Shown here: positions 1,837-37,807 of the stretch, in pieces
Layout of the letters: each line of letters opens with the position of its first letter
Numbering within the stretch: position 1 is the stretch's first letter
DNA from: Eledone cirrhosa
Lineage: Eukaryota
Reading direction: 5' to 3'
Assembly: GCA_964016885.1 (NCBI GenBank)
Contig: OZ024744.1
Coordinates: 39,184,001-39,248,000, forward strand
Length of the DNA stretch: 64,000 nt
Notes under the pieces: model-generated
Seen by the model: only the letters and a program-made list of their open reading frames with translations
The model's database searches: none
What the model was told of the DNA's origin: nothing
Made by a program: the position numbers and the translations under genes

Positions 1837-2711
1837 ATAAATTGAAACAAAATGAAAACGAAATTTCATTTCTCACTCTTAGTATGGCACTTACTTAAAT
1901 GTAAGTATGCATGTATACGTACATACATATATGTATACAGACGTATAGTAGCATGCACATATATATATATATATACATATATACATACATATGCATACAG
2001 GTACACATACATATATGCACGTATCAGTTTAGCGGCGCTAACGTCGCTTTGTTCGTTTGTAAACAAACTGAACAGCCTGAATTTATGCCATACGGTGTTA
2101 AGGCAACCACGTCACCTTTTTGTTCAACACTGACACAGGAACGATGTACTAGTTTCAAGCTTGTTAGCTATCATCAGCACCGTTTACCCATCTGCCAGAT
2201 AGTTGAACGTTCGAAAGTATATACTTTCCTTATGAAAATTAACGGCTGAGCAGCCTAATTTGCATATTGAGTGAGTTAAATCGGTCAGGCATACCGAAAA
2301 CGATAAATTGAAACCAAATGAAAACGAAATTTCATTTCTCACTCTTAGTATGGCACTTACTTAAATGTAAGTATGCATGTATACGTACATACATATATGT
2401 ATACAGACGTATAGTAGCATGCACATATATATATATATATACATATATACATACATATGCATACAGGTACACATACATATATGCACGTATCAGTTTAGCG
2501 GCGCTAACGTCGCTTTGTTCGTAATAAATTCAGGCTGTTCAGTTTGTTTACAAACGAACAAAGCGACGTTAGCGCCGCTAAACTGATACGTGCATATATG
2601 TATGTGTACCTGTATGCATATGTATGTATATATGTATATATATATATATATGTGCATGCTACTATACGTCTGTATACATATATGTATGTACGTATACATG
2701 CATACTTACAT
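1835..2711 (-). mobile_element. 466-bp hammerhead-containing repeat (retrozyme-like), array 1: ~1.5 units plus an inverted arm
   Basis: Period 466 (identical ORF starts at 1852 and 2318). 2524-2711 is the reverse complement of part of the unit. Flanked by microsatellite on both sides. Confidence 0.85.
2140..2184 (-). ncRNA. Minimal type I hammerhead ribozyme
   Basis: Minus strand: AACGGUG-CUGAUGA-U-AGCU-AACA-AGCU-U-GAAAC-UA-GUA^CAUCGUU. 7-bp stem I, intact core, 4-bp stem II, palindromic ACUAGU stem III. Confidence 0.85.
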
Positions 2712-3302: not shown

Positions 3303-3683
3303 GTATATATATGTATATATATATATATATGTATATATATGTATATATATATATATGTATATGTATATATATACACATATATATATACATATATATACAT
3401 ATATATATTTTCATATATATATATACACATATATATATATACACATATATATATTTTCATATATATATATACACATATATATATTTTCATATATATATAT
3501 ACACATATATATATATTCATATATATATAGATATATATATATACACATATATATATATACACATCTATATATATACACATATATACTCACACATATATAT
3601 ACTCACACATATATATACACATATATATACACATATATATTTACATATATACATATATATATATATAGACATATATACATATG
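2712..3683. repeat. (TA)n-derived microsatellite, switching from TATG-type to CATA-type near 3370
   Basis: Direct reading of the sequence. Confidence 0.95.
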
Positions 3684-4122
3684 TGAGTTACAAACGAAAC
3701 AAAATTTAATTTCGTTTCGTTATTTGTTTTTATCGTCTCCGTTGAACCGGTACGTACTCACACTATGCAAATTAGTCTGCCCACTACTAATTTTCATAGA
3801 AAAAGCATATAACGATATGTGCTTTTACGATTCTCCAGAAGGGCCGGTAGATAGGTAAATATTGCTGATGAGTTGTAACAACAACGAAACTAGTTCAATA
3901 TTCCTTGTCTGGCTTTCTGGAGAATAGAGGAAAGGTGTTTCCTCAAAAACCAGTATGACTCTAAAAACCGGTTTGTCTGTGTGTTTACATACAGAATAGC
4001 TGGATACTCACAGTAAAGTAACCAGTGAAAGACTTGGTACATCTACATATGTATACGTGTGTGTATTCATATGCATACTAGTATTTCAGTATACATATAT
4101 GGATGTACATTTTTAACTTAAT
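3684..4122 (+). mobile_element. Diverged relative of the 466-bp hammerhead repeat (single unit)
   Basis: Shares ordered blocks with the reverse complement of the 466-bp unit (ACTCAC..TATGCAAATTAG.CTGC, TAATTTTCATA..AAAG.ATATA, GG.AGAT.GGTAAA), followed by an HHR. Confidence 0.75.
3858..3902 (+). ncRNA. Minimal type I hammerhead ribozyme
   Basis: AAUAUUG-CUGAUGA-GUUGU-AACA-ACAAC-GAAAC-UA-GUU^CAAUAUU. Perfect 7-bp stem I, 5-bp stem II with G10.1-C11.1, palindromic stem III. Confidence 0.92.
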
Positions 4123-4384
4123 TGTATATATGTATATATATATATGTATATATATATATGTGTATATATATGTATATGTATATATATGTATGTATGTATA
4201 TATATATGTGTGTGTATATATATATATGTGTATGTATATATATATATATATGTGTGTATATATGTATATATATATATATAAATGTATATATATATATATA
4301 TATGTGTGTGTATATATATATATATGTGTGTATATATATATATATGTGTATATATATATATGTGTGTATATATATATATATGTG

Positions 4385-5486
4385 TCATTATCATCATCAT
4401 CAACGTTTAACGTCCGTGTTCCATGCTTGCATGGGTTTGGACGGGGGTAGTCCCACTTGAGGCAAGAGTGATTGTCTTGCTCGCATAGGACTGTCTGGCA
4501 GGTTTTCTACAGTTGGATGCCCTTCCTAACACCAACCACATTTACAGTGTGGGTCTGGGAGGTTTTTACCGTGTTGCCTACACGGCCACATTACAGCGTG
4601 GACTGTGTTTTTTTGTCGTGACACCTACACGATCTCATTTGTTTCGGCCTGGATGGCGCGGCACCAACATAACTTTACATAGAACGGGGTGGTGTGGATG
4701 GGGTGGGGGTGGTGGCGGGACGGGGTGTATTTTGTTAGAGATGCCTACTGGCAAGGCGGGTCTTCTCTGTTACTGAGTACCGCCAAAGGTCTAGGTCCAG
4801 TGACATTGTCTTGGAGAGGTGTAAGTGTGTGAGGTCGGAGTTTATCAGCTCATCCCAGGTTTTTCTAGGTCTGCCTATTCCGTGGCTACCGTCTATCTTT
4901 ATTGCCCTGCACTTTGTTATACAGCTATCGACTTTCATGCGCATCACGTGTCCATACCAACGCAGCCTTCTCTCGAGTAAACAACATCTGATCCCTCTTA
5001 TCTCTAATTTTTTCCTTAGTTCGTTTATGCTTTGCCGTTCACGTATATTACTGTTACACATCCAGCGGAGCATGCAAGCTTCGTTCCTCTCTAGTCTGCG
5101 TATATCCTCTGCACACAATGCCCAGGTCTCACTACCATGCAACATTGCTGTTCGTATGCAGGCATCGTACAACCTGTCTTTCATTTTTAGGGAGAACCCT
5201 TTAGCAGCTAATAGTGGTATAAGCTCTCTGAACTTTTTCCAACCAGTTCTGACTCTAGCTACAGTACTTTCAGAGCACCCTCCCACACTGCTGATTTTAT
5301 CGCCCAGGTAACGGAATCTGTCCACTATTTCTATAGAACCCTCTGCGCAATTGAAAGAGCTAGTATTTTGTGGGCACTTGCTGCTACTTATTGCACCAGA
5401 ACACCGGCCACATGCAAAATCTATGTTATTAGTTAGCTTACCTGTGATCCCACTACATCTTTTATGCACCCATACTTTGCATTTAG
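4385..5486 (-). mobile_element. RTE-clade LINE, family 1, 5'-truncated
   Basis: ORF 4735-5469 has FRYLG, MLHGSETW, RRLRWYGHVMR and GRPRKTW motifs. ~350-nt 3' UTR and (ATG)n tail. Confidence 0.93.
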
Positions 5487-9300: not shown

Positions 9301-9490
9301 CCACACTATACTCCTCCCTCTCCACCTTCACTCTCATCTCCTCCTCTTTTTTTCATCCTTTCCACCACACCCCCCTCTAAATAAAATATTTTTCCCAATA
9401 TCACACATCAATCTAAAACTACTTCTCATATGTTGATTTAAAACTGCACTATCCACAAGTGTTTTTTAGCCTTCATATCATGTCCTCCTG

Positions 9491-9557
9491 TTTTATCTGA
9501 TGAAAACACAAATATTATTGCATGATGATATTTGTTTTTGAAATGCGCATAATAAAA
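9491..9557 (+). ncRNA. Type I hammerhead ribozyme (PLE1 right arm)
   Basis: UUUUAU-CUGAUGA-(~15-bp stem II, loop GCAU)-GAAAU-GCGC-AUA^AUAAAA. Palindromic AUGCGCAU stem III. Confidence 0.85.
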
Positions 9558-9705
9558 TACATGGAACTCCTTTAACCATCTTTTGTTCTTATATATTATG
9601 TATACTCCAGTCCCACAAACTGTAGAGTGCTTCTTATACGATATCTGCATTGCTTTATTGTACTACAATAAAACTCACCTCCTACATTATATATATGTAT
9701 ATATA

Positions 9706-10167: not shown

Positions 10168-12700
10168 CATCATCATCATCGTTTAATGTCCGTATTCCAC
10201 GCTTGCATGGGTTTGGACGGGAGTTTTCCCACTTGAAGCAAGAGTGGTTGTCTTGCTCCCATAGGACTGTCTGGCGGGTTTTCTACAGCTGGATGCCCTT
10301 CCTAACACCAACCACATTTACAGTGTGGAACTGGGAGGTTTTTACCGTGTTACCTACACGAACACATTACAGTGTGGACTGTCTGGCCGGTTTTCTACAG
10401 CTGGATGCCCTTCCTAACACCAACCATGTTTACAGTGTGTACTGGCAGGTTTTTACCGTGTCGCCTACACGGCCACATTACAGCGTGGACTGTGTGTTTT
10501 TTGTCGTGACACCTACACGACCTCATTTGTTTCGGCCTGGATGTTGTGGCACCAACATAACTTTACATTGAAAGGGGCCGTGTGGATGGGGTGGGGGTAG
10601 TGGGACGGGGTGTATTTTGTTAGAGGTGCCTACTGACTAGTAGGTTTTACTTTGTATTTAGGTAAGGCGGGTCTTCTCTATTACTGTGTAGCGCCAAAGA
10701 ATTCGGTTCAGTGACATTGTCTTGGAGAGGTGTAAGTGTGTGAGGTCGGAATTTATCAAGTCGTCCCAGGTTTTTCTGTGTCTGCCTACTCCCTGTCTAC
10801 CGTCTATTTTTATTGCCCTGCACTTTTTTATACAGCTGTCGTCTTTCATGCGCATCACGTGACCATACCAACGTAGCCTTCTCTCGAGAAAACATCTGAT
10901 CCCTCTTATTTCTAATTTTTCCCTTAGTTCGTTTATGCTTTGCCGTTCACGTATATTACTATTACACATCAAGCGGAGCATGCAAGCTACGTTCCTCTCT
11001 AGTCTGTGTATATCATCTGCACACAATGCCCAGGTCTCATTGCCATGCAACATTGCTGTTCGTATGCAGGCATCATACAGCCTGCCTTTCATTTTTAGGG
11101 AGAACCCTTTAGTGGCTAATAGTGGTATAAACTCTCTGAACTTTTTCCATCCAGTTCTGACTCAGCTACTGTACTTTCAGAGCACCCTCCCCCACTGCTG
11201 ATTTCGTCACCCAGGTAACGAAGCTGTCCACTATTTCTATAGAACCATCTGTGCACCTGAGCACCGGCCACACATAAAATCTATGTTCTTAGTTAGCTTA
11301 CCTGTGATCCCACTACATCTTTTATGCACCCATACTTTGCATTTGGGACATAAAATGGAGTTTCTACCTACTCCTTTCCTACACACTGAGCATGGCCATT
11401 TCCCTGATGGGACCAGCGCCCTATTTTCCTTCCTACAAACTAGAACTTTAGTCTTAGACAGGTTAATTTTAAGGCCTTTTGATTCTAGGCCATGCTTCCA
11501 TGTTTGGAATTTCTTCTCTAGTTCGGCCATCGATTCAGCTATGAGCGTTAGATCATCTGTGTATAGGAGTTCCCATGGGCAGCCGGTCTTGAACTCCACT
11601 GTTATAGCCTGAAGGGCAATAATAAATAGTAGGGGGCTAAGAACGGAGCCCTGATGAACACCAACTTTTACGCTAAACTCTTCATTATATTCGTTGTTAA
11701 TTCTAAACATGGCTTGTATAGCTCTCACAAGCCATTCATCAACACCTAGTTTTCTAAGAGCCCACCAGATAATGGAACGGGGGACACTGTCTAAGGCTTT
11801 CTCCAAGTTAACAAAAGCTAAGTATAGGGGTTTACTTTTAGCTAGGTACTTCTCCTGTAGTTGTCGTACAATGAAAAGAGCGTCTGCAGTACTTTTGCCT
11901 GACCCAAACCCGAACTGCATTTCATCTAGATCAATTCTCTCTCTGATTAGTTGCGCTATTACTTTTTCTGTGACCTTCATGACCTGGTTGATTAATTTAA
12001 TGCCTCTATAGTTACTCCTATCTAGGGCATCTCCTTTTCCCTTGTAGCAGTTAATGATGATGCTGCTATGCCAGTCCTTCGGAACAACCCCATTCTGTAT
12101 TACTATCCGGGTGACCATGGTGTGTCCCACCATTCAAGAAGCTTTCAGCATTTCAGCAACTATTTCCGAAGGCCCAGCCGCCTTACCCGTCTTCATATCT
12201 TTGATTGCCTTACTTATTATACTATCTTCGACTAACACTGCTGGTCCCTCTATTGGGTCGATGTGGGGGAGACTGTCTTTCTCCCATTTATTCTCCTCAT
12301 TTAGTAGCCTTTCGTAGTGACACTTCCAAGCTACCTTCTTATCAGCGTCAGTGATGGCAAGTACACCATCATCATTAAGTACACACTTCTCCCTGACAAT
12401 ATCACGGTTTTCTTTGACACATTGCCTAGCAATCCTGAACACCTCACGTTTTTGGTCCTCGCATTGTTGAACATGCTTGAACTTTCTTTCCTCTGCTTCC
12501 CTTCTTGCGAAGTACACCTGTCTCCTAGCTTCCCTCCTAGCCACTTGATAGTCTTCTCTACTTCCCCCATCCCGCCATACTTTCCAAGCCTGCTTTTGGG
12601 CCTTAATTGACTCCTCCACCTTACTGTTCCACCACCATGTTACTCTCCTCCTGCCTACAGGCCTGCTCCAGCCACAGACTTCGTCTGCCGCCATCAGCAG
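10166..12700 (-). mobile_element. RTE-clade LINE, family 1, 5'-truncated, disrupted
   Basis: ORF pieces 12134-12694, 11237-12133 ([16 protein letters not shown]) and 10658-11092. A ~115-nt block of the 3' UTR is duplicated. (ATG)n tail. Confidence 0.93.
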
Positions 12701-12709
12701 CGTTGCTTA

Positions 12710-12758
<49 letters not shown>

Positions 12759-12936
12759 ATATATATAAATGTGTATATATATACATGTGTGTATATATAT
12801 ATATGTGTGTATATATATATGTGTATATATATATGTATATATATATATGTATATATATATATGTATAAATATGTATGTATATATATATATGTATATATAT
12901 ATATGTATATATATATATGTGTATGTATGTATATAT

Positions 12937-14885
12937 ATCATCATCATCAGGTTTAGCGTCCGTGTTCCACGCTTGCATGGGTTTGGACGGGGTTTTCCCA
13001 CTTGAGGCAAGAGTGGTTGTCTTGCTCGCATAGGACTGTCTGGCGGGTTTTCTACAGTTGGATGCCCTTCCTAACACCAACCACATTTACAGTGTGGGGC
13101 TGGGAGGTTTTTACCGTGTTGCCTACACGGCCACATTTACAGCGTGGACTGTGTGTTTTTTTGTCGTGACACCTACACGATCTCATTTGTTTCGGGCTGG
13201 ATGTTGTGGGACCAACATAACTTTACATTGAAAGGGGCGGTGTGGATGGGGTGGAGGTGGTGGGAGGGGGGGGGGTGTTTTGATAGAGATGCCTACTGAC
13301 TGTAGTAGGTTTTTACTTTGTATTTAGGTAAGGCGGGTCTTCTCTATTACTGAGTACCGCCAAAGGTCTCGGTCCAGTGACATTGTCTTGGAGAGGTGTA
13401 AGCGTGTGAGGTCGGAATTTATCAGCTCGTCCCATGTTTTTCTGGGTCTGCCTACTCCGTGGCTACCATCTATCTTTATTGCCCTGCACTTTGTTATACA
13501 GCTGTCGTCTTTCATGCGCATCACGTGACCGTACCAACGTAGCCTTCTCTCGAGTAAACATCTGATCCCTCTTATTTCTAATTTTTTCCTTAGTTCGTTT
13601 ATGCTTTGCCGTTCACGTATATTACTATTGCACATCCAGCGGAGCATGCAAGCTTCGTTCCTCTCTAGTCTGCGTATATCCTCTGCACACAATGCCCAGG
13701 TCTCACTGCCATGCAGCATTGCTGTTCGTATGCAGGCATCGTATAACCTGCCTTTCATTTTTAGGGAGAACCCTCTAGCGGCTAATAGTGGTATAAGCTC
13801 TCTGAACTTTTTCCATCCAGTTCTGACTCTAGCTACTGTACTTTCATGGCCATTTCCCAGATGGGATTGCCGCCTTATTTTCTTTCCTACAAACTAGAAC
13901 TTTAGTCTTAGCCAGGTTAATTTTAAGGCCTTTTGATTCTAGGCCGTGCTTCCATGTTTGGAATTTCTTCTCTAGTTCGGTCATTGATTCAGCTATGAAC
14001 GTTAGATCATCTGCGTATAGGAGTTCCCATGGTCAGCCGGTCTTGAACTCCTCTGTTATAGCCTGAAGGGCAATAATAAATAGTAGGGGGCTAAGAACAG
14101 AGCCCTGATGGACACCAACTTTTACGCTACACTCTTCACTATATTCGTTGTTAATTCTAACCTTACTGACTGTTTCTTTATACATGGCTTGTATAGCTCT
14201 CACAAGCCATTCGTCAACACCTAGTTTTCTAAGAGACCACCAGATAATGGAACGGGGGACTCTGTCGAAGGCTTTCTCCAAGTCGACGAAAGCTAAGTAT
14301 AGGGGTTTACTTTTAGCTAGGTACTTCTCCTGTAGTTGTCGTACAATGAAAAGAGCGTCTGTGGTACTTTTGCCTGACACAAATCCGAACTGCATTTCAT
14401 CTAGATCAATTCTCTCTCTGATTAGTTGCGCTATTACTTTTTCCGTGACCTTCATGACCTGGTCGATTAATTTAATGCCTCTATAGTTACTCCTATCTAG
14501 GGCATCTCCTTTTCCCTTATAGCAGTTAACGATGATGCTGCTACGCCAGTCCTTCGGAACAACCCCATTCTGTACGACTTGGTTAACTATCCGGGTGACC
14601 ATGGTGTGTCCCACCGAACCAGATGCCTTCAGCATCTCAGCAACTATTTCCGAAGGACCAGCCGCCTTACCCGTCTTCATATCTTTGATTGCCTTGCTTA
14701 TTGTACTACCCTGGACTAACACTGCTGGTCCCTCTATTGGGTCGATGTGGGGGAGACTGTCTTTCTCCCATTTGTTCTCCTCATTTAGAAGCCTTTCGTA
14801 GTGACACTTCCAAGCTACCTTCTTATCAGCGTCTGTGATGGCAAGTATGCCATCATCGTTAAATACACACTTCTCCCCGACAATA
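12937..14885 (-). mobile_element. RTE-clade LINE, family 1, truncated, internal deletion near 13846
   Basis: RT motifs ([24 protein letters not shown]) in 14033-14885 and C-terminal ORF 13324-13758. The zinc-finger region is deleted. Confidence 0.92.
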
Positions 14886-15537
14886 CATATATATGTATAT
14901 ATATGTATATGTATATATATGTATATGTATATATGTATATATATATATATATATATGTATATGTATATATATATGTGTATATATATGTATATGTATATAT
15001 GTATATGTATATATATATATGTGTATATATATGTATATGTGTGTATATATGTGTATATATATGTATATGTATATATATATGTGTATATATATGTATATGT
15101 ATGTATATATATATATGTATATGTATGTATATATATGTATATGTATGTATATATATATATATGTATGTATATATATGTATATGTATGTATATATATGTAT
15201 ATGTATGTATATATATATGTATATGTATGTATATATATATGTATATGTATGTATATGTATGTATATATATATGTATATGTATGTATATATGTATATGTAT
15301 GTATATATGTATATGTATGTATATATATATATATGTATATGTATGTATATATGTATATGTATGTATATATGTATATGTATGTATATATGTATATGTATGT
15401 ATATATGTATATGTATGTATATATGTATATGTATGTATATATATATATGTATATGTATGTATATATGTATATGTATGTATGTATATATGTATATGTATGT
15501 ATGTATATATGTATATGTATGTATATATATGTATATG

Positions 15538-15594
<57 letters not shown>

Positions 15595-15595
15595 G

Positions 15596-15626
<31 letters not shown>

Positions 15627-16126
15627 GTATATATATGTATATGTATATATATGTATATGTATATATATGTATATATATGTATATGTATATATATGTATAT
15701 ATATATATATGTATATATATGTATATATATGTATATGTATATATATGTATATGTATATATATGTATATATATATATATGTATATATATGTATATGTATAT
15801 ATATGTATATATATGTATATATATATATATGTATATATATGTATATGTATATATATGTATATATATATATACGTATATATATATATGTATATATATGTAT
15901 ATGTATATATATATATATGTATATATATGTATATGTATATATATGTATATATATATATACGTATATATATATATGTATATATATGTATATGTATATATAT
16001 ATGTATGTATATGTATATATATATGTATATGTATGTATATATGTATATGTATGTATGTATATGTATATGTGTACGTATATGTATGTATATGTATATATAT
16101 GTATATATATATATATATGTATATAT
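14886..16126. repeat. (TA)n/(TATG)n microsatellite
   Basis: Direct reading of the sequence. Confidence 0.95.
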
Positions 16127-16367
16127 ATGTAAGTATGCATGTATACGTACATACATATATGTATACAGACGTACAGTAGCATGCACATATATATATATAT
16201 ATACATATATATATACATATGCATACAGGTACACATACATATATGCACGTATCAGTTTAGCGGCGCTAACGTCGCTTTGTTCGTTTGTAAACAAACTGAA
16301 CAGCCTGAATTTATGCCATACGGTGTTAAGGCAACCACGTCACCTTTTTGTTCAACACTGACACAGG

Positions 16368-16412
16368 AACGATGTACTAGTTTCAAGCTTGTTAGCTATC
16401 ATCAGCACCGTT
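16368..16412 (-). ncRNA. Minimal type I hammerhead ribozyme
   Basis: Identical to 2140-2184. Confidence 0.85.
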
Positions 16413-16833
16413 TACCCATCTGCCAGATAGTTGAACGTTCGAAAGTATATACTTTCCTTATGAAAATTAACGGCTGAGCAGCCTAATTTGCATATTGAGT
16501 GAGTTAAATCGGTCAGGCATACCGAAAATGATAAATTGAAACAAAATGAAAACGAAATTTCATTTTTCACTCTTAGTATGGCACTTACTTAAATGTAAGT
16601 ATGCATGTATACGTATATACATATATGTATACAGACGTACAGTAGCATGCACATATATATATATATATACATATATATATACATATGCATACAGGTACAC
16701 ATACATATATGCACGTATCAGTTTAGCGGCGCTAACGTCGCTTTGTTCGTTTGTAAACAAACTGAACAGCCTGAATTTATGCCATACGGTGTTAAGGCAA
16801 CCACGTCACCTTTTTGTTCAACACTGACACAGG

Positions 16834-16878
16834 AACGATGTACTAGTTTCAAGCTTGTTAGCTATCATCAGCACCGTT
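16834..16878 (-). ncRNA. Minimal type I hammerhead ribozyme
   Basis: Identical to 2140-2184. Confidence 0.85.
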
Positions 16879-17299
16879 TACCCATCTGCCAGATAGTTGA
16901 ACGTTCGAAAGTATATACTTTCCTTATGAAAATTAACGGCTGAGCAGCCTAATTTGCATATTGAGTGAGTTAAATCGGTCAGGCATACCGAAAATGATAA
17001 ATTGAAACAAAATGAAAACGAAATTTAATTTCTCACTCTTAGTATGGCACTTACTTAAATGTAAGTATGCATGTATACGTACATACATATATGTATACAG
17101 ACGTACAGTAGCATGCACATATATATATATATATACATATATATATACATATGCATACAGGTACACATACATATATGCACGTATCAGTTTAGCGGCGCTA
17201 ACGTCGCTTTGTTCGTTTGTAAACAAACTGAACAGCCTGAATTTATGCCATACGGTGTTAAGGCAACCACGTCACCTTTTTGTTCAACACTGACACAGG

Positions 17300-17344
17300 A
17301 ACGATGTACTAGTTTCAAGCTTGTTAGCTATCATCAGCACCGTT
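17300..17344 (-). ncRNA. Minimal type I hammerhead ribozyme
   Basis: Identical to 2140-2184. Confidence 0.85.
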
Positions 17345-17765
17345 TACCCATCTGCCAGATAGTTGAACGTTCGAAAGTATATACTTTCCTTATGAAAATT
17401 AACGGCTGAGCAGCCTAATTTGCATATTGAGTGAGTTAAATCGGTCAGGCATACCGAAAATGATAAATTGAAACAAAATGAAAACGAAATTTCATTTCTC
17501 ACTCTTAGTATGGCACTTACTTAAATGTAAGTATGCATGTATACGTACATACATATATGTATACAGACGTACAGTAGCATGCACATATATATATATATAT
17601 ACATATATATATACATATGCATACAGGTACACATACATATATGCACGTATCAGTTTAGCGGCGCTAACGTCGCTTTGTTCGTTTGTAAACAAACTGAACA
17701 GCCTGAATTTATGCCATACGGTGTTAAGGCAACCACGTCACCTTTTTGTTCAACACTGACACAGG

Positions 17766-17810
17766 AACGATGTACTAGTTTCAAGCTTGTTAGCTATCAT
17801 CAGCACCGTT
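17766..17810 (-). ncRNA. Minimal type I hammerhead ribozyme
   Basis: Identical to 2140-2184. Confidence 0.85.
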
Positions 17811-17956
17811 TACCCATCTGCCAGATAGTTGAACGTTCGAAAGTATATACTTTCCTTATGAAAGTGCCATACTAAGAGTGAGAAATGAAATTTCGTTTTC
17901 ATTTTGTTTCAATGTATATATATGTATATATATATATATATATGTATATGTATATG

Positions 17957-17987
<31 letters not shown>

Positions 17988-18009
17988 GTATGTGCACGGT
18001 TTTCCAATT

Positions 18010-18944
18010 GGTGCTCTGAAAGTACTGTAGCTAGAGTCAGAACTGGTTGGAAAAAGTTCAGAGAGCTTATACCACTATTAGCTCCTAAAGGGTTCTCCCT
18101 AAAAATGAAAGGCAGGTTGTACGATGCCTGCATACGAACAGCAATGCTGCATGGCAGTGAGACCTGGGCATTGTGTGCAGAGGATATACGCAGACTAGAG
18201 AGGAACGAAGCTTGCATGCTCCGCTGGATGTGTAACAGTAATATACGTGAACGGCAAAGCATAAACGAACTAAGGAAAAAATTAGAGATAAGAGGGATCA
18301 GATGTTGTTTCCTCGAGAGAAGGCTACGTTGGTATGGACACGTGATGCGCATGAAAGTCGATAGCTGTATAACAAAGTGCAGGGCAATAAAGATAGACGG
18401 TAGTCACGGAATAGGCAGACCTAGAAAAACCTGGGACGAGCTGATAAACTCCGACATCACACACTTACACCTCTCCAAGACAATGTCACTGGACCGAGAC
18501 CTTTGGCGGTACTCAGTAACAGAGAAGACCCGCCTTACCTAAATATATAGTAAAACCTACTCCAGCCAGTAGGTATCTCTAACAAAATAGCCCCCCCCCC
18601 CCACACCCCCACACACCCCCACCCCATCCACACCACCCCGTTCTATGTAAAGTTATGTTGGTGCCGCGCCATCCAGGCCGAAACAAATGAGATCGTGTAG
18701 GTGTCACGACAAAAAAAACACACAGTCCACGCTGTAATGTGGCCGTGTAGGCAACACGGTAAAAACCTCCCAGACCCACACTGTAAATGTGGTTGGTGTT
18801 AGGAAGGGCATCCAACTGTAGAAAACCTGCCAGACAGTCCTATACGAGCAAGACAATCACTCTTGCCTCAAGTGGGACTACCCCCGTCCAAACCCATGCA
18901 AGCGTGGAACACGGACGTTAAACGTTGATGATGATGATGATGAT
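18010..18944 (+). mobile_element. RTE-clade LINE, family 1, 3' fragment
   Basis: C-terminal ORF ending 18542, 3' UTR and (ATG)n tail. Confidence 0.92.
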
Positions 18945-19594
18945 ATATATGTATATGTATATATATATCTATATATATATGTATATGTATATATATATGT
19001 ATATGTATATATATATGTATATATATATGTATATGTATATATATATGTATATGTATATATGTATATATATATGTATATATATATGTATATGTATATATGT
19101 ATATGTATATATGTATATATATGTATATAAGTATATATGTATATATATGTATGTATATATATATATGTATGTATATATATATATGTATGTATATGTATGT
19201 ATATGTATGTATGTATATGTATGTATATGTATGTATATGTTTGTATGTATATGTATGTATGTATATGTATGTATATATATGTATATGTATATATATGTAT
19301 ATGTATATATATGTATATGTATATATATGTATATGTATATATATGTATATATATATGTATATGTATATATATGTATATATATGTATATGTATATATATGT
19401 ATATATATGTATATGTATATATATGTATATATATGTATATGTATATATATGTATATATATGTATATGTATATATATATGTATATATATGTATATGTATAT
19501 ATATATGTATATATATGTATATGTATATATATATGTATATATATGTATATGTATATATATGTATATGTATATATATGTATATAAATATGTATAT

Positions 19595-21370
19595 ATCATC
19601 ATCATCATCACCGTTTTATGTCCGTTCTTCCATGCTAGCATGGGTCAGACGGGTTGTCCTGTTGTGGGCAGTGTCTGGTCGGCTGACCATGCCTTGCTCA
19701 TATAGGAACTGATTTGGCTTGATTTCTACAGCTGGATGCCCTTCCTAACACCAACCTCATTTACAGTGAGTGCTGGCTGCTTTTTCGTGGCGCCTACACG
19801 TCCATTTTACACTGGGCTGGGTGCTTTTTTGCCGTGGCACCTCTACGACCACCTTGCGGTGGGGTGTGTGGGGGAATAATATCTATATGCTTCAGCTTGT
19901 ACCCATGGGAGGTCGGGTACTCTGTATTACTGTGTGACGCCAGAGGTCACGGTCGTGTGTCATCACCTTTGAGAGGTGTAATTGGGTAAGGTCGGCTTTT
20001 ATCACCTCATCCCAGGTCATCTTGGGTCTCCCCAATCCGTGGTTTCCATCGACTTCTAGTGCTCTGCACCTTTTTATGCAGCTGTCATCCTTCATACGCA
20101 TCACATGTCCATACCAGCGCAACAGCCTCTCCTGCACACAGCATTTGATTCCTCTTATGCTCAGTCTCTCTCTCAATTCATTTATGCTTTGTCGTTCACG
20201 TATATTACTGTTACACATCCATCGGAGCATGCAGACTTCGTTCCTCTCTAATCTACGTAAGTCTTCCACCTTCAGCACCCAGGTCTCACTACCATGCAAC
20301 ATCGCTGTTCGGATACACGCATCATACAGTTTGCCTTTCATTATGAGGGAGAAGCCTTTTGCAGCTAGCAGTGGTAGTAGTTACCTAAACTTCTTCCATC
20401 CCGTTCTTACCCTAGTTATTGTATTTTCTGAACACCCACCTCCGCTGCTAATTTGGTCACCTAGGTAGCAGAAGCTGTCTACTGTTTCTACAGAGCCCTC
20501 CCAGAGATTGGTGGTACTTGTTTCCTGTGGCTGTATGCTGCTTGCTGTCCCAGCACAGCTGCTGCATGTGAAGCCTACATTCTTAATTAAGCTTCCTGAG
20601 ATCCCGCTACATCTCTTGTGTACCCATTGTTTGCATTTGGGGCAGAGAATGGAGTTCCTACCTACACCTTTCTTACATACTGAGCAAGGCCATTTGCCTG
20701 AGGGGATCTGGGTTCTGTTTTCTCGTCTACTTACAAAGACCTTAGTCTTTGTCATGTTGACTTTGAGACCCTTTCTTTCTAGTCCCTGCTTCCAAATTTG
20801 GAATTTATTCTCTAGTTCTACCATAGATTCAGCTATAAGTGCGAGGTCATCAGCACACAGGAGTTCCCATGGGCATCTGGTCTTAAACTCCTCCGTTATT
20901 GCCTGCAGGACTATGATGAACAGGAGGGGGCTAAGAACAGAGCCCTAGTGGACCCCAACCTGTACGCTAAATTCCTCGCTATACTCATTGCTAATCCTAA
21001 CTTTGCTGACTGCTCCCCTATACATGGCTTGTACCGCTTTCACAAGCCATTCATCTACTCCTAGTTTTCTAAGAGCCCACCAGATTACAGCACGTGGAAC
21101 TCTGTTCCAGGTTTTCTCAAGGTCAACAAATGCCAGGTAGAGTGGCTTACTTTTAGCTAGGTACTTTTCCTGTAACTGCCTGACAAGGAAGAGGGCATCA
21201 GTGGTGCCTCTTCCTGGTACAAACCCAAATTGCATCTCGTCTAGTTTCACCTGGTCCCTAATCAACTGTGCTATAACTCTTTCTGTTACTTTCATGACCT
21301 GGTCCATCAGCTTCATACCTCTATAGTTTCCTCTATCTAGTGCATCACCTTTACCTTTGTAGCAGTTGAC
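19595..21370 (-). mobile_element. RTE-clade LINE, family 2, 5'-truncated, with stops
   Basis: ORF pieces 20945-21370, 20381-20824 and 19892-20341. Distinct 3' UTR shared with 24568-27358. Confidence 0.92.
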
Positions 21371-21376: not shown

Positions 21377-21407
<31 letters not shown>

Positions 21408-23692
21408 TAAAAACTACTGGACGACCTTAAAAATACCAAAGGAATTGTAGTAAAAGCGGACAAAACATCAAACCTGTACACTATGGATTGCACTACATAC
21501 AACAACTTCATTCGAAAAGAATTACATAAAAAATATAGAAAAACGAATGAAGTAACTCTTAAGCACATCAATGATGAGGCATGCGAAATAGTGAAAAATC
21601 TCGGAATTGAAGATAGGACAGGACCACTCTTACCGGCGGTACCCACCTTCAATCTTAAGGACCATAAGGTAAACTTTGATAATGACCCTAAAATTAGATT
21701 AATCTGCCCCTCTAAATCAGATATAGGTAAAATAAGCAAATATATCTTAGATAGAATCATCCCCCAAATTAAGGCTAAGGTTAACATTAAACTCTGGGGG
21801 AAGACCCAAGAAGCAATAAGATAGATTTATTCTTATTGCTAATGCTATTAAACCAAGTTTATCCAGTTTGATATCGATAAATATTACTCATCGATATCAC
21901 CTGAAACTTTGAATAGAGCCATTAAGTTTGCTAAGGATAACTCTGACCTTATAAACGATGAAATTAAGATTATATTAGAAGCTAGGAAAACTATAGTCAA
22001 ATTTGAGAACAGTTATTGGGTACGTAAAGATAGACCCTCTAACTTTGACATAACAATGGGCTCTAACGATTCGGCGGAAATAACTGATATTGTGGGGTTA
22101 TTTATCGCCTTTAGACTCCAGGAAAAATTCAGCAATCTCCACGGCGGAATATACCGCGACGATGTTCTCCTCCTAATTAAAAACCTAAATAACCAAAAAC
22201 TAGAAAAACTACGCAAAGATATAAGAAAACTACTACTCGAAATAGGACTAACTATAACATATGAATACAACCTTAAAGTAGTTAACTTCCTGGATGTCAC
22301 ACTCAATTTAAACTCTGGTTTGATTAAACCATTTCATAAATTGAATGAAAATCTCAAATACGTAAATGTTGGGTCTAACCACCCCATCTCTATAATTAAA
22401 TCTATCCCTAAAAATATTTCCCTTAGAATCTTGGGTCTATCTTCTAACATACAAGTATTTAAGGAACACACCGAGTACTACGATAACGCCCTTAGTAAAG
22501 CAGGCTACCTCAACAAAATAGAGTATATAGATGGGAACTATCAAAACACCAAAAATAAATCCCACATAGGTAGATATAATAACACAACACCAAACCACAC
22601 TTACTACCATAGTATGCACACCAGTAAACCAACAAACAAAACTAATAGAAAGCGATGCAAAGAGTACTTATGGTATAACCCCGAATACAATAGTTCCATT
22701 AGTACAAATTTACCAGTACTCTTCTTTAAAATAATTAAGAGACATTTTCCTACATCACACAAATACCACAAAATCCTAAACCCTACCACTATAAGACTGT
22801 CATACTCTACAGCGTTAAACCTTGAACAAAGATAAAAAAGATCAATACTAGAAGGTTAAACGAAAACACTAAGAACTTAAGTACAAAGAACACAAAAAAA
22901 AACAGTAGACAATACACTACAGAACATAAATAAACCACACTTAAGTTCGTCCTCAATACTACTCCAGAGAAAACCCAACGTACACAACTGTAACTGCACC
23001 TATCCTGACAACTGCCCCCTCGGCAATAACTGACTGGAAAAAAATATTATTTATAAGTGTACCATTAAATCCGGAGGCAACGAGTGGTATTACGTGGGAT
23101 CAACGGCAACATCGTTTAAATCTCGATTATATAGGCATTCTTACTCAATAAAACACCAGAGCCAAAGAAATGTAACAACTTTAGCAGAAAAAGCTTGGAC
23201 GCTCAGGGATAGCGATCAAAAGTTTACCCTAAAATGGGAGAAATTAGCTAAAACTCAAAGCTTTTCCAGGAGCCAAAATTTCTGCAAATTGTGTAATCTT
23301 GAGATTTATTACATAATCACACACAAGAAGAAATTACTGAATAACAGAATTGAACGAACATTATTCTGCCGTCACAGAACTAAAACCCTTTTTTCCCACT
23401 ACAAGCCGAATATTACATAAAAGAGGGACATCCCCCCAACTATATAAACCTCAATCTAGTTAGAAAAATATAAAAACAATCTCTTCTCAACATATATTAA
23501 TAACCTTAAATTACCACACTAATAATGGAAAGATATGCTGATGAGAATAGGTGCAAATATGCGATAATGAATGTGTCTAAAAACGTCCATAAGTATGTAT
23601 ATATATGTGAAAATGTATATAAATAAGTAAATATATATATATATGTTTGATGTGTATAGTTAGATGTAAGTGTATTCATGTATTAAAGTGCT

Positions 23693-23732
<40 letters not shown>

Positions 23733-24556
23733 GAGATGTGTATGTATATGTATATATGTACACATAGACTAGAGTATGTATGTATATATGTGTGTGTCTA
23801 TATGTGTGTATATAAAGATAAGTTGAGTATGAAAATGTATACACATGAATGCGTATGTATGTACATGAATACATGTGTGTATATATATATGTATGCATGT
23901 GTATATGTATGTAAGTATGAACATGTTACTATGTGAATGTGAGTATATGTATTTTGTAGAGGTGTGCAAATATATTTGTGTGTGAATGCATGGGTGAAAG
24001 GATACGTACACTTGAAAGAAAAATTTAAGTCTGAATGTTAATTAAGTGCAAACACAAAACCAACCACGCATATCTTTACTATCTCTAATCCTTCTATAGA
24101 TTTAGAAAAATAACCAATAATATATTCTATAAAAATGTCAAAACAACAGATGGGAATCTAATTACTCACTGCCACCAAAAATTCTCACTGCTATCAAAAA
24201 ACCACTCCCTCAACTATTCTTCTAACAACTTCACCCCTCCCTCCTAATATTCTCTATAAAAACCAAATAGGTCCCCTCAGTAATATTATTCTGATGAAAT
24301 GACAGTAAATAATAACATTGAAATATTGAATGTCTGCATAACTAAAACTTTGTAGATAGCAGCTGTTTTCAGGTTATGTAACTGTTATAGAAACACGTGT
24401 CAATAAATTCCTTTCAACTAAACTGTATCCATTCAAATCTTTCTATTTTTCTCCGGATTACTTTTGGAACTACAACTGGAACCGTCGAGCAAACTCTACG
24501 CGAGCTGTCAATCTACTGTGTGTAATATTTATATTACAACACAACGGAAAATACTG
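21408..24556 (+). mobile_element. Penelope-like element 2, 5'-truncated, disrupted
   Basis: KADKT, LKDHK..RLICP, FDI..YY, TMGS, IYRDD and NFLDVTLNL RT motifs, a CNC..CPL linker and GIY-YIG (IIY..YVGST..RL..H; ORF 23094-23420). Long 3' UTR with an HHR. Confidence 0.9.
24286..24406 (+). ncRNA. Type I hammerhead ribozyme with a large branched stem II
   Basis: UUAUU-CUGAUGA-AAUGACAGU...ACUGUUAUA-GAAAC-ACGU-GUC^AAUAA. Palindromic ACACGUGU stem III. Confidence 0.75.
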
Positions 24557-24567
24557 TATATATGTAT

Positions 24568-27358
24568 ATCATCATCATCATCATCATCATCACCGTTTTA
24601 CGTCCGTTCTTCCACGCTAGCATGGGTTAGACGGGTTGTCCTGTTGTGGGCAGTGTCTGGTCGGCTGACCATGCCTTGCTCATACAGGAACTGATCTGGC
24701 TCGATTTCTACAGCTGGATGCCCTTCCTAACACCAACCTCATTTACAGTGAGTGCTGGGTGCTTTTTCGTGGCGCCTACACGTCCACTTTACAGTGTGGG
24801 CTGGGTGCTTTTTTGCCGTGGCACCTCCACGACCACCTTGCGGTGGGGGGGGGGGCATATTGTTTATATGCTTCAGCATGTACCCATGGGAGGTCGGGTA
24901 CCCTGTATTACTGCGTGACGCCAGAAGTCACGGTCGTGTGTCATTGACTTTGAGAGGTGTAGTTGGGTAAGGTCGGCTTTTATCACCTCATCCCAAGTCA
25001 TCTTGGGTCTCCCCACTCCGCGGTTTCCATCAACTTCTAGTGCTCTGCACCTTTTTATGCAGCTGTCATCCTTCATACGCATCACATGTCCATACCAGCG
25101 TAACCGCCTCTCCTGCACGCAGCATTTGATTCCTCTTATGCTCAGTCTCTCTCTCAATTCATTTATGCTTTGTCGTTCACGTATATTACTGTTACACATC
25201 CATCGGAGCATGCAGGCTTCGTTTCTCTCTAATCTACGTAAGTCTTCCACCTTCAGCGCCCAGGTCTCACTACCATGCAACATCGCTGTTCGGATACACG
25301 CATCATACAGTCTGCCTTTCATTCTGAGGGAGAAGCCTTTTGCAGCTAGCAGTGGTAGTAGTTCCCTAAACTTCTTCCATCCCGTTCTTACCCTAGTTAT
25401 TGTACTTTCTGAGCACCCACCTCCGTTGCTAATTCGGTCACCTAGGTAGCAGAAGCTGTCTACTGTTTCTACAGGGCCCTCCCAGAGATTGGTGGTACTT
25501 GTTTCCTGTGGCTGTTTGCTTGCTGTTTCAGCACAGCTGCTGCATGTGAATCCTACATTCTTAATTAAGCTTCCTGAGATCCCGCTACATCTCTTGTGTA
25601 CCCATTGTTTGCATTTGGGGCAAAGAATGGAGTTCCTACCTACACCTTTCCTACATACTGAGCAAGGCCATTTCCCTGAGGGGATCTGGGTTCTGTTTTC
25701 TCGTCTACTTATAAGGACCTTAGTCTTTGTCATGTTGACTTTGAGGCCCTTTCTCTCTAGTCCCTGCTTCCAGGTTTGGAATTTATTCTCTAGTTCTACC
25801 ATAGATTCAGCTATGAGTGCGAGGTCATCAGCATACAGGAGTTCCCATGGGCATCCGGTCTTAAACTCCTCCGTTATTGCCTGCAGGACTATGATGAACA
25901 GGAGAGGGCTAAGAACAGAGCCCTGGTGGACCCCAACCTGTACGCTAAATTCCTCGCTATACTCATTGCCAATCCTAACTTTGCTGACTGCTCCCCTATA
26001 CATGGCTTGTACCGCTTTCACAAGCCATTCATCTACTCCTAGTTTTCTAAGAGCCCACCAGATTACTGCACGTGGAACTCTGTCAAAGGCTTTCTCAAGG
26101 TCGACAAATGCCAAGTAGAGTGGCTTACTTTTAGCTAGGTACTTTTCCTGTAATTGCCTCACAAGGAAGAGCGCATCAGTGGTGCCTTTCCCTGGTACAA
26201 ACCCAAATTGCATCTCGTCTATATTCACCCGGTCCCTAATCAGCTGTGCTATAACTCTTTCTGTTACTTTCATGACCTGGTCCATCAACTTTATACCTCT
26301 ATAGTTTCCTCTATCTAGTGCATCGCCTTTACCTTTGTAGCAGTTGACAATGATGCTACTGCACCAATCTTTTGGTATGGCCCCCTCTAGTATTACCTGG
26401 TTAACGATACGTGTGGTTATAGTGTGACCTACAGACCCAGATGCCTTCAGCATCTCGGCAGCTATACCCGATGGACTGGTTGCCTTCCCTATCTTCATAT
26501 CTCTGATTGCCTTACTTACTACGCTGCCGCTGACTTGTACTGCTGGTCCCTCTATAGGGTCTACGTGGGGTAGGGTCTCTCTTCCCATGCATTCTCCTCA
26601 TTTAGTAATCTATCATAATGACTCTTCCATGCATCTTTCTTCTCAGCACTTGTGAGGGCAAGCTCACCTTTATCATTCCGGATACACTTCTCTCCAATGA
26701 CATCACAACTATCTCTGACACACTGCCTCGCAATCTTGAATACCTCCTGTTTCTGGTCCTCACGTTGTAAAACATGCTTGAATTTTCTATCCTCTGCTTC
26801 CCTCCTAGCTAAGTATACTTGTCGCCTAGCTTCCCTCTTGGTCTCTATGTAATGTACCCTGCTCCCCCCGTTCTTCCATTCTTTCCATGCCTGTCTCTTG
26901 GCCTTGACTGCTTCATCTACCTTATTGTTCCACCACCAAGTCACTCTCCTCCTGCTTGAGGTCTTACTCCAGCCACAAACCTCATCCGTCGCCTCTAGTA
27001 AGTTATTTTTTAGGAACTCCCAGTTCTCTTCTACGTTAAATGTCTCTATCTGTTCTTCTTTACTGTCGTAGGCGTTGAGTAAAATATCTTTAAATCTGTT
27101 ACTGGTTGAGGGGACTTTCAGCTTCCAGATCTTTCTTCTCCAGGTTGGCCTCTGTTTCAGGGCTCGTCTAGTTCTGACCGTGAGGTCGCTGACAACTAAG
27201 CTATGTTGGGATGTACATTCCTCACTAGGGAAGGCTTTTGTGTTTACGACCGTCCATCTGTCACGTCCTCTGATGAGGATAAAATCTAACTGACTAGAGT
27301 GCTCCCCTGATCTATAGGTGATCAGGTGGTTGTCGGGTTTTTTAAAGTTTGTGTTACA
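24568..27358 (-). mobile_element. RTE-clade LINE, family 2: end of APE domain + RT + C-terminus, one frameshift near 26580
   Basis: ORF 26561-27358 (LDFIL, SQH) and ORF 24873-26588 (571 aa, YADD, PHD-like finger). (ATG)n tail. Confidence 0.95.
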
Positions 27359-27421
27359 TATGTATATATGTATATATATGTATATATATATGTATATATA
27401 TATGTATATGTATATATGTAT

Positions 27422-27471
<50 letters not shown>

Positions 27472-27506
27472 GTATATATATGTATATATATGTATATATA
27501 TGTATA

Positions 27507-27580
<74 letters not shown>

Positions 27581-27583
<3 letters not shown>

Positions 27584-28606
27584 TAGCATTAAAGCCCGGC
27601 ATTGCTCGGGGTCAGTAAGTTACCAAAGTTAGGTTGCACCACCCATTTTATGGCAGCATTTTTTGTCTGCCAGGCACTGGGTGAATGAATTGCAGACCTG
27701 GACTGCCGAAGCAGGAGCTGCGCCAGCAGTGACAATTGTAGTTTCGCCTCTGGATATTATCTCTGTGCAAAGAAGTGTTGAAATTTATTGTTTCACAGTC
27801 CTTACGCAACACGCGCGTAGACGATGCCAGCCGAACAACAGAGCTGCGATGGAGTTGTTCTGCATGGTTGTCTGTGTTTTCTAAATTTAAGACAGTAGGG
27901 AGGGGTGTGATATGGGGAGAGTTAGCTATTGTTTCTAGCAGGTTTAGTGACCTCATAGAGGATATGTTTTCTAAATTTAAGACAGTAGGGAGTGGTGTGA
28001 TATGGGGGGAGAGTTAGCTGCTGTTTCTAGCAGGTTTAGTGACCGCATAGAGGATATGTTTTCTAAATTTAAGACAGTAGGGAGTAGTGTGATAATGGGG
28101 AGAGTTAGCTGCTGTTTCTAGCAGATTTAGTGACCTCATAGAGGATATGTTTTCTAAATTTAAGACAGTAGGGAGTGGTGTGATAATGGGGAGAGTTAAG
28201 TTCTCTTTGTCATTGAAGTAAATAAATGTTTGACCGTTCCACACTCAAAAACAAACGTTCTCTCTCTCTCTCCCTCTCCCTCTCTTCTCTCTCTCTCTCT
28301 TTGGTGTTCCTAAAGGAAGTTTGTAAGCATGTATGTAGTTTTATCGAATTTGAAGGGGAGTAGAGAGAGGTAAGCAGATTCTATTAGAGGGGTAAAGCGT
28401 CATGTATTTAGTTCTAGCGATTATTTCCATAATTGTGGGTGAGTTTGAATGGAATAAATAGTCGTTGACCTCAGTTAGATCATTTACAACATTCTCACAG
28501 ACTTTGAGTCGAATTGGTTTGAAATTGTGCAAATGTATAAACATGGAACATGCACACACACACACACACACACAACAACAACAATATGCCTTTTATAGAT
28601 AATGAT
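27581..28606 (+). mobile_element. Probable Helentron-associated non-autonomous element (DINE-1/HINE-like)
   Basis: Starts TACTAG with a subterminal GC hairpin CCCGGCATTGCTCGGG. Has an internal tandem array and ends (CA)n...TTTTATAGATAATGAT. Confidence 0.6.
27875..28199. repeat. ~91-bp minisatellite, ~3.6 copies
   Basis: TGTTTTCTAAATTTAAGACAGTAGGG recurs at 27875, 27965, 28057 and 28148. Confidence 0.93.
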
Positions 28607-35323: not shown

Positions 35324-35949
35324 TATATATATATATATATATTATTTATTTATTTATTTAATATAAAGAATGATGTGCTCATGTATGGAGATGCTATTAA
35401 ATAGCTTATAACAGAGGGTGAAGACCCATAAAAGCCGGAAAAAGAAGTTGCCATCAGCTGCTATGAGGAATTGAACCCTGTATCTCGCAGGTTGTGGTTG
35501 GGCACTTTAGGCGATTAAGCCAAGGGACCATGACAACTCTTACCATCTTAAATTAGATAGCTGAATCACAGCTTTTAGATGTCTATAAACATCGTAGTAA
35601 ACAAATATTGTGTATATTTAGCTGATCTTTTGGACTTTTACAAAGTGCTGAGAAGATAAAGTTAATATAAAGAATGATGTACTCATGTATGGAGATGCTA
35701 TAAAATAGCTTATAAGATAAGACCCTTTAAGGGCAGAAGGGATGAAGACCTTTTAAGGGCAGAAAAAGAAGTTAATATCTGCTGTTTATATTTCTTTTCT
35801 CTCTCAGCTTGACTGTTTCATCATTCATGCACATTAACATCATCCATCCATCGAAGCATGCTTGCTTTTTATTTATTTCCAATCTTCGCATATCGTCTGC
35901 ATTTAATGCCCATGTTTTACTTTGTGTGTGTGTGTGTGTGCATGTACTT
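35323..35949. repeat. Segment duplicated in inverted orientation at 40985-41616
   Basis: By eye, identical reverse complement apart from simple-repeat lengths. Matching ORFs 35772-36041 (-) and 40982-41164 (+). Confidence 0.92.
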
Positions 35950-36396
35950 ACGTGTGCATGTGTGTGTGTATATATATATACGCATATATGCATAAGCATG
36001 TCTCTTCTCTCTTGGTTGTCCATCGTAAACGATGATGACATCTTCTTTATTGTTGTTCCAGTCTGCTGCGGGAACGAAGGTGGCTGTGGATGCTGATCCT
36101 TGACTTGGAGGTCCGAGGACAGTGGGGACAGGGGAAGAGACTGGAGTCAGACTGGCAACTTCCAGAGGTTACCTCCATCTGTTACCTCCACCTCTCGCCC
36201 ATCGCCACAGGGCTTTGGGAGTGCACGCTAAAGAAGAAACCTGTGCGGGAAAGGTTTATAGTGGAAGGGCCAGTGCACAGATAAGCATGTATATATATAT
36301 ATGTTTATGTATATGTATATATGTATATGTATATATATATATGTTTATGTATATATATATATGAAAAATCAGTGATGTATCTGAAATCAATTTATT

Positions 36397-37780: not shown

Positions 37781-37807
<27 letters not shown>

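Follow-up and report, generated by a model that had tools for sequence, protein, structure and literature searches.

The 466-bp tandem repeat analysed here, family F1, is most probably a non-autonomous Penelope-like element (PLE) of the non-LTR retrozyme kind, mobilised in trans by a PLE protein that unites a reverse transcriptase (RT) with a GIY-YIG endonuclease. Judged from the shape of its copies, the family has most likely spread by means of the borrowed enzyme of these retrotransposons. F1 forms two arrays in the window, a stretch of 64,000 nucleotides of Eledone cirrhosa (assembly GCA_964016885.1, contig OZ024744.1, positions 39,184,001 to 39,248,000 of the forward strand), where it is accompanied by a single arm of a sister family, F2. 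Coordinates given below are those of the window, phase 1 is the first base 3' of the predicted ribozyme cut (17306 in one unit), and genome-wide counts refer to the 3.0-Gb assembly. The arms of the arrays end at two internal sites of the unit, A and B, and the stretch between these sites is called the tail.

1837..2522, minus strand: 1.47 units forming one arm of array 1, with the outer end at site A (phase 310) in (TA)n
2524..2711, plus strand: inverted arm of array 1, covering phases 61-248, with the outer end at site B in (TA)n
3683..4125, plus strand: single arm of sister family F2, ending at the F2 site B in (TA)n
14883..16126, no strand: (TA)n-type microsatellite, left part of the array 2 target
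16127..17863, minus strand: array 2 long arm of 3.73 F1 units, with its RNA-sense 3' end (16127) at site B, phase 248, and its RNA-sense 5' end at phase 376
16997..17058, minus strand: F1 tail of one unit, about 60 nt, between site B (phase ~248) and site A (phase ~310)
17059..17180, minus strand: long TA-rich self-complementary hairpin (predicted fold), phases ~128-248, ending at site B
17862..17913, plus strand: inverted short arm of array 2, which covers phases 255-306 from its start at site A to a stop beside site B
17914..17991, no strand: (TA)n-type microsatellite, right part of the array 2 target

TRF assigns to 16127-17863 a period of 466 bp with 3.7 copies and 99% matches, and the four units of array 2 show only three single-base differences in total. 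That the repeat is non-coding, as claimed in the preliminary description, is borne out by the reading frames of the circularised unit: the longest ones, of 79 aa in sense and 112 aa in antisense, are both of low complexity, run through the TA-rich hairpin and are not credible, and the ATG within the CUGAUGA core opens just 16-19 codons. The tandem units were originally thought to extend over 16127..17913, which is correct up to 17863, whereas 17862-17913 is the inverted arm of 52 nt; this short arm is the tail alone and overlaps the long arm by 2 nt. F1 arrays end in (TA)n junctions without LTRs, and the copies are numerous and dispersed, with matches spread over 11 contigs among the 40 matches scored. 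The identification as a retrozyme therefore stands, resting as it does on non-coding, dispersed tandem units with hammerheads and without LTRs. The predicted RNA of F1 is highly self-paired (z -7.6). The F2 unit is also 466 bp long, its predicted fold is similar, and it has a predicted hairpin at the same place as the TA-rich hairpin of F1.

Each complete F1 unit carries one type I hammerhead on the minus strand, just as first reported; four consecutive complete cores lie in the tandem repeat of array 2, and F2 has a hammerhead of its own.

2140..2184, minus strand: type I hammerhead of array 1, H17 at 2147
3858..3902, plus strand: F2 hammerhead, with ACUAGU stem III as in F1
16368..16412, minus strand: type I hammerhead, predicted cut 3' of A (H17) at 16375
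16834..16878, minus strand: type I hammerhead, predicted cut 3' of A (H17) at 16841
17300..17344, minus strand: type I hammerhead, predicted cut 3' of A (H17) at 17307
17766..17810, minus strand: type I hammerhead, predicted cut 3' of A (H17) at 17773

The F1 motif is made up of a 7-bp stem I, CUGAUGA, a stem II of a U-U followed by 4 bp, GAAA and an ACUAGU stem III, with predicted cleavage after GUA; in F2 the cut would follow GUU. When the unit was resampled 20,000 times with a first-order Markov model, a hammerhead-like match with a stem I of at least 6 bp arose three times. Comparison with Rfam, which had been proposed as a check, gave a divided answer, as F1 does align to Hammerhead_HH9, but with 18.5 bits and an E value of 0.049, far under the gathering score of 52; in the scan of the whole window miRNA matches to TA repeats dominate, and the F2 hammerhead is the only hammerhead among the matches listed. 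Genome-wide there are 38,463 cores of the F1/F2 hammerhead type, and the core is of F1 or F2 type at every one of the 30 loci and 100 listed places from the core search. Among 654 cores in the fetched loci, with overlaps counted repeatedly, H17 is never G and N7 is only U or C. Moreover, in a set of 11 hand-picked and mutually related variants of F1, F2 and a third relative, two-sided changes occur at 8 of the 13 stem pairs, and the covariation score of this set is 0.485 as compared to at most 0.10 in slid controls. By these sequence comparisons, the hammerhead structure looks to be under selection in F1 and its relatives. Divergence is 0.013 in the hammerhead region versus 0.021-0.039 in the rest of the unit.

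To which type of hammerhead does the motif belong? The preliminary description had likened it to the minimal hammerheads of PLEs, a reading that has to be given up: a stem I of 7 bp, a stem II of 4-5 bp and a 1-bp stem III with palindromic tetraloop constitute the canonical metazoan type. The minimal form found in PLEs is described as having neither stem III nor loop 3, a helix II of 7-8 bp and a helix I of 4-5 bp, and the canonical metazoan form as having a palindromic stem III of 1-2 bp that is completed in dimers (PMC4209133). By analogy, F1 RNAs would be expected to cleave as dimers. Since stem II of F1 closes with a U-U, and since one out of nine Xenopus retrozyme dimers tested in a recent preprint cleaved (bioRxiv 10.64898/2026.07.22.740005), ribozyme activity should not be assumed. 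Two read sets, X4 and X5, each contain one contig near unit length (470 and 486 nt, depth 7-10), which may derive from RNA or from trace DNA and was not used.

The strongest indication of how F1 spreads comes from the anatomy of its insertions. Both arrays in the window consist of two arms joined 5' to 5', the RNA-sense 3' ends of which run into (TA)n; the outer ends lie at phase 248 on the left and phase 306 on the right in array 2, and at phases 310 and 248 in array 1. Of the F1 two-armed inserts in which both outer ends were seen, 10 of 11 combine site A (phases 304-310) with site B (phases 245-251), L049 being the exception. Exact matches to junctions between site A and (TA) number 850 genome-wide, whereas the same pattern search yielded 0 F1 matches to junctions between the cut site and (TA). 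A sample of 50 of these 850 places, all on C1 and picked solely by their site-A junction, had a visible partner outer end in 22 cases, 19 of them at site B (one, L121, read by eye), two unclear, one cut short and none at site A; at the other 28 loci no partner arm was detected or the fetched stretch ended first. F2 inserts behave similarly, with A and B combined in 20 of 23, two unclear and one ending at the cut (phase 465); here the two sites lie at phases 298-302 and 228-233, giving a tail of about 70 nt. Pairings of A with A or of B with B were never seen in F1 or F2 inserts. Furthermore, 7 of 49 A arms stop within 70 nt, that is about at site B, versus about two expected, and A arms stopping at site B are what twin priming on one RNA predicts; the short arm of array 2 belongs to this group. 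It should be noted that target-site duplications are unreadable in a (TA)n target.

These junctions also bear on the possibility that F1 behaves like a SINE, with the enzyme of a LINE of the RTE type priming at the 3' end of a ribozyme-cut monomer. RTE elements are abundant in the window beside (TA)n tracts, and one F2 arm stops a single nucleotide before the cut, which would fit such a mechanism. We nevertheless regard it as barely credible, because no F1 junction of cut site and (TA) stands against the 850 junctions at site A and because both ends of the inserts are fixed and internal. Priming at the 3' end of linear cleaved monomers is refuted as main route by the lack of F1 cut-site/(TA) junctions. 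The F2 arm in question lies at L072:2211-2300 and is mirrored across an (AT)n tract. Dense nested LINE fragments abut (TA)n at 4392-5484, 10174-14877, 18010-21364, 24557-27600 and 33778-46925, among other places in the window; we take them to represent two families of the RTE type.

Two individual loci deserve mention. At L051:4500-5000 two consecutive F2 units contain an 18-nt duplication that re-enters exactly at site B, as if the RT had re-initiated there or as if one unit had been duplicated later. In L137, about 250 nt before the site-A match, a short B arm is followed by an inverted copy of the flank, unrelated sequence and an A arm consisting of the tail only, which suggests template switching onto target DNA.

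Which enzyme could produce inserts of this shape? A purified PLE protein has been shown to nick both strands of AT-rich DNA and to extend them, reverse transcription starting at two internal sites of the RNA; the stretch between these sites becomes a genomic tail that has been called unique to PLEs (PMC11167929, Frangieh et al.). Head-to-head arms with the tail on one arm have been described for PLEs (PMC3846280; PMC8557442), Naiads prefer (TA)n, and a bias towards microsatellites was proposed for Neptune (PMC8557442). As F1 and F2 show two fixed internal start sites together with the tail signature of PLEs, their insertion can be attributed to PLE chemistry. The initial suggestion of mobilisation by a PLE RT/endonuclease is thus supported by the start sites, the head-to-head arms and the (TA)n target. 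The further suggestion that the PLEs within the window are the partner is not upheld, since these are without DNA similarity to the F1 unit. One of them is useful for comparison only.

21400..24557, plus strand: broken copy of an active-looking coding PLE (start approximate)

The family of this coding PLE has two end sites in (TA)n, at 24446 and ~24557, which occur 12 and 8 times in 20 loci, and both two-armed inserts that could be seen in full (L146/L147 and L150) use one site per arm. At least 150 matches at 99-100% exist for its endonuclease part, several of them in frames of 785 aa. By sequence, autonomous PLEs are present in the same genome and this one is active-looking. Its tail is 110 nt long and unrelated in sequence to F1. 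On the basis of the cysteine linker, not of a tree, we presume the element to be Neptune-like. A second, different PLE with RT and GIY-YIG-like frames occupies 46915-50740; its 3' repeat recurs inverted and, on inspection by eye, seems to end at either of two sites separated by about 58 nt. In L156 an F2 array is joined tail to tail with a 3'-truncated copy of the window's coding PLE, a junction that is probably due to insertion or deletion and not to chimeric retrotransposition.

It could be argued that the unit is a mere pseudo-LTR (pLTR) of a coding PLE and that the arrays are truncated by-products. All cis features of a pLTR are indeed present in the unit (hammerhead, tail and inverted arm), and Xenopus retrozymes are reported to be homologous to pLTRs (bioRxiv 10.64898/2026.07.22.740005). 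However, the arms reach lengths of more than 68 pure units, and in those F1 and F2 loci that were scanned for ORFs or PLE protein matches none of them leads on into an ORF. The core search, with exclusively F1- or F2-type cores at its 30 loci and 100 listed places, also speaks against this explanation, which we consider improbable. No PLE ORF in register with the unit was found in F2 loci, in older F1 loci or in 13 of the 30 loci picked by their core, and none was found at six single-copy ACUAGU cores. Likewise, no homologous pLTR of a coding PLE was found in the window or in the fetched F1/F2 loci. Pieces of PLE ORFs near some F1/F2 copies are separate insertions that lie beyond (TA)n tracts.

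Outside the ribozyme, the most conserved stretch of F1 and F2 is ATGCAAAT together with its pairing partner at phases 347-381 (16926-16960, minus strand). The region lies just 3' of site A and pairs in a predicted hairpin in F1 and F2, making it a candidate for an RT-binding hairpin or for an octamer promoter element. For newt satellite 2, use of an snRNA promoter has been reported (cited in PMC2220036). In F1 and F2 alike, however, the word is base-paired within a predicted hairpin, so that an snRNA-type promoter would be a tentative reading.

From the anatomy of the inserts and from what is known of other retrozymes, the following route seems the most likely. Tandem genomic copies would be transcribed, and the hammerheads would cut the transcript, probably as dimers and incompletely, to yield multimers, monomers and perhaps circles. 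A PLE RT/GIY-YIG protein acting in trans would then bind the RNA and nick both strands of a (TA)n tract, whereupon one nicked strand would prime at site A and the other some 60 nt further upstream at site B, aided by an AU match of 2-3 nt. Both cDNAs would extend toward the 5' end of the RNA, mostly straight across the cut site, and would finally be united head to head, with a few bases overlapping or added as filler. Because both cDNAs mostly cross the cut, the tandem arms would largely be made at insertion and not only by later unequal crossing-over. The template would be a mix of RNAs that are unbroken at the cut, be it a circle or an uncut multimer, and RNAs with a 5' end or an obstacle for the RT at the cut.

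Unequal crossing-over is the core of yet another explanation, according to which the arrays are an ordinary satellite derived from decayed pLTRs, with a hammerhead-like motif that is non-functional. Very long heterogeneous arrays as found on C11 and C7a would agree with it, as would the proposal that the terminus of a PLE can be amplified locally (bioRxiv 10.64898/2026.07.22.740005) and the divergence of the hammerhead region, which is just modestly lower than that of the rest. But crossing-over leaves unexplained the 850 dispersed identical junctions, the strict pairing of A with B, the variants common to inverted arms and the compensatory changes in the stems. A satellite origin is accordingly very improbable and, as origin of the arrays, largely refuted. 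The C11 array (C11:4.2645-4.298 Mb; L087, L067, L031, L032) comprises more than 68 F1 units over 32 kb, its left end not being reached. Its short inverted arm is normal and terminates at site B; the array is possibly a source locus or an incipient satellite.

Was the RNA that gave rise to an array a circle or a linear multimer? The preliminary description had assumed that each array arises from one template and that the arrays are marked by diagnostic variants, and both assumptions hold in part. The word noted for array 1 is indeed rare, with 13 places genome-wide: it is present in 3 of 3 of array 1's copies, in both arms, and in 10 other places. The word noted for array 2, CAGACGTACAGT, on the other hand, is the norm of the family (84 of 108 loci). 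Over 345 positions in 178 units, the mean distance is 0.93 within arrays as compared to 6.58 between arrays, a comparison that is dominated by long arrays. In C4 and in C10 all 8 of 8 units have one length and do not differ at the 345 positions compared, and in C9 two changes are fixed in 11 of 11 units and occur in no other sampled locus. The C10 insert carries two mutations in 9 of 9 copies, eight of them in one arm and one in the inverted arm, with no other match in the assembly. Such private mutations in all copies of both arms favour one repeatedly copied template. In contrast, the array at C6:61.33 Mb (L209) is mosaic, with three adjacent units that have the array-1 variant and at least five that lack it, and the arrays on C11, which is very long, and C7a are heterogeneous from unit to unit. 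The three arrays show that template mixing or later local spread also acts. The C10 insert bears out the assumption of one template per array; the mosaic C6 array and the very long C11 array do not.

Further information comes from the 5' ends of the arms. They were determined for 78 F1 arms at 49 loci, excluding L204 as mis-parsed and placing by hand one B arm as well as five ends that lie within the TA hairpin. Phases 1-31 contain 14 of the 63 stops, corresponding to 4.4 per kb versus about 1.0 elsewhere. The best 62-nt window of stops starts exactly at phase 1 and is matched by 33 of 5,000 null scans. At the same time, 96 of 116 passes that enter the 62 nt before the cut go across it, and in arms that are past a first crossing of the cut the excess of stops is weak (7 of 34, p 0.055). 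For F2, in a sample that is biased to long arms and in which four arms were entered by hand, 14 of 56 stops lie in phases 1-62 (p 0.004-0.008), with a peak at 32-62. Alternatively, the pile-up of stops after the cut could reflect stalling of the RT at the long closing stem.

These data can be accommodated by two models. Just short of an even chance, in our estimate, the main template is a monomeric circular RNA rolled by the PLE RT, in which case every unit copies one and the same molecule. Evidence of this kind includes the two C10 mutations, which are shared by both arms and absent elsewhere in the assembly, the uniform units of C4 and C10, the fixed changes of C9, the high proportion of passes across the cut, and the accumulation of known retrozymes in circular form (PMC7229834). 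A circle, however, lacks a 5' end, whereas the 31 nt after the cut show an enrichment of stops of about 4-fold; moreover, the source array of the C10 variants may sit on the other haplotype or be lost, and the mosaic L209 demands a second template or later spread. A template in the form of a linear, partly cleaved multimer from an existing array, which makes a circle unnecessary, seems to us a serious contender, though we would not bet on it. It would account for the excess of stops at phases 1-31 in F1 and at phases 1-62 in F2, and copying of a heterogeneous array would fit the mosaic L209 and the two-unit duplication in L051; in addition, uncut RNA was the main substrate of an anole PLE in vitro (PMC11167929). 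The multimer is at odds with the weakness of the stop excess after one crossing of the cut, with the position of the F2 peak at phases 32-62 instead of 1-31, and with C10 variants that are without parent array in the assembly, and stalling at the long closing stem would pile up stops similarly.

Taking the circular template one step further, the arrays could possibly, with somewhat less than even confidence on our part, be the record of a PLE enzyme rolling up to ten or more times round one monomeric, viroid-sized hammerhead circle. Both strands of the (TA)n target would prime at the two fixed sites, and stops would arise preferentially at the ribozyme junction, where the circle is re-cut or the ligated bond blocks the enzyme, a detail that we hold equally tentatively. 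If true, such rolling would supply the retrotransposition step in the cycle of animal retrozymes, and the RNA signal recruiting the enzyme would be the conserved hairpins around site A.

F1 and F2 are surrounded by related motifs. Further hammerhead families with palindromic stem III are found at 9489-9559, 49666-49718 and ~24291-24402 of the window, all on the plus strand, and in many fetched loci; some have a very long stem II, and the one at ~24291-24402 sits in the 3' repeat of the coding PLE. L089 (C14:25.32 Mb) harbours a tandem family with a spacing of about 300-310 bp, a CUGAAGA core and an ACGCGU stem III; older F1 copies are interspersed with it, and both are part of a larger block that is itself repeated. 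The third relative of F1 and F2, at L056:5304-5354 on the minus strand, has an ACAUGU stem III and ends in (TA)n. Outside the main pattern there are 129 ACUAGU hammerhead-like cores as compared to 12 in a reversed control, many of them single (L216-L221 among them); with their unrelated flanks and weak stems these are probably relics of older families.

How animal retrozymes re-enter the genome is an open step of their cycle. A review of 2020 describes retrozyme repeats as being without a motif that points to a partner (PMC7761336), and the insertion mechanism is left open in the preprint of Li, Clavereau and Pollet (bioRxiv 10.64898/2026.07.22.740005). What is new here is unusually direct evidence on retrozyme mobilisation, which was previously argued mainly from shared motifs and kinship. 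The F1 family, a retrozyme of a cephalopod or octopus and a tail signature in retrozymes were not found in a literature search that covered subscription papers thinly. F1 and F2 are young and very abundant and have exact start sites, which opens the way to a direct assay: the RNA, the sites and the (TA)n target are known, and the genome itself encodes intact PLE proteins to be used. Moreover, the two families let genomics tell a circle from a linear multimer and may show hammerhead cutting in the germ line.

F1 joins the described class of non-LTR retrozymes, and both this class and the PLE hypothesis are already published. Metazoan retrozymes are known from coral, mussel and axolotl, together with newt satellite 2 (Cervera and de la Pena 2020, PMC7229834). 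Like them, F1 is a non-coding tandem repeat whose units are a few hundred bp long and each contain a single canonical type I hammerhead with a short palindromic stem III; its predicted RNA is highly self-paired, its cores number in the tens of thousands, and PLEs occur in the same genome. HHR_Amex2 of axolotl has the same U-U at the base of its stem II, and the 466 bp of the unit are slightly above the 150-450 bp given for metazoan retrozymes. Circles and cleavage were shown by experiment for these retrozymes, whereas F1 is known from sequence alone; conversely, the mobilising enzyme is a hypothesis in that article, which, as far as it was accessible, describes neither fixed start sites nor inverted arms nor a targeting of (TA)n. 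The PLE link, suggested in PMC7229834, is argued for in the preprint of Li, Clavereau and Pollet, who arrive at the same conclusion as we do for F1. Their evidence consists of co-occurrence and pLTR homology, mostly in vertebrates, and tandems are discussed as local amplification, whereas the evidence for F1 is insertion anatomy, with no homologous pLTR found in the examined loci. With the endonuclease-bearing (EN+) PLEs (PMC11167929; PMC3846280; PMC8557442) F1 and F2 have in common the two internal RT start sites, the tail on one arm, the AT-rich or microsatellite target and a hammerhead upstream of the start sites. Unlike these PLEs, F1 and F2 have no ORF, their arms are pure tandem multimers, and their tails measure about 60 nt (F1) and 70 nt (F2) instead of the 30-40 nt described for EN+ PLEs. 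Multicopy head-to-tail insertions are likewise described for MRC1, a non-autonomous Chlamys PLE of Chlamydomonas (PMC8557442), which F1 resembles in this respect.
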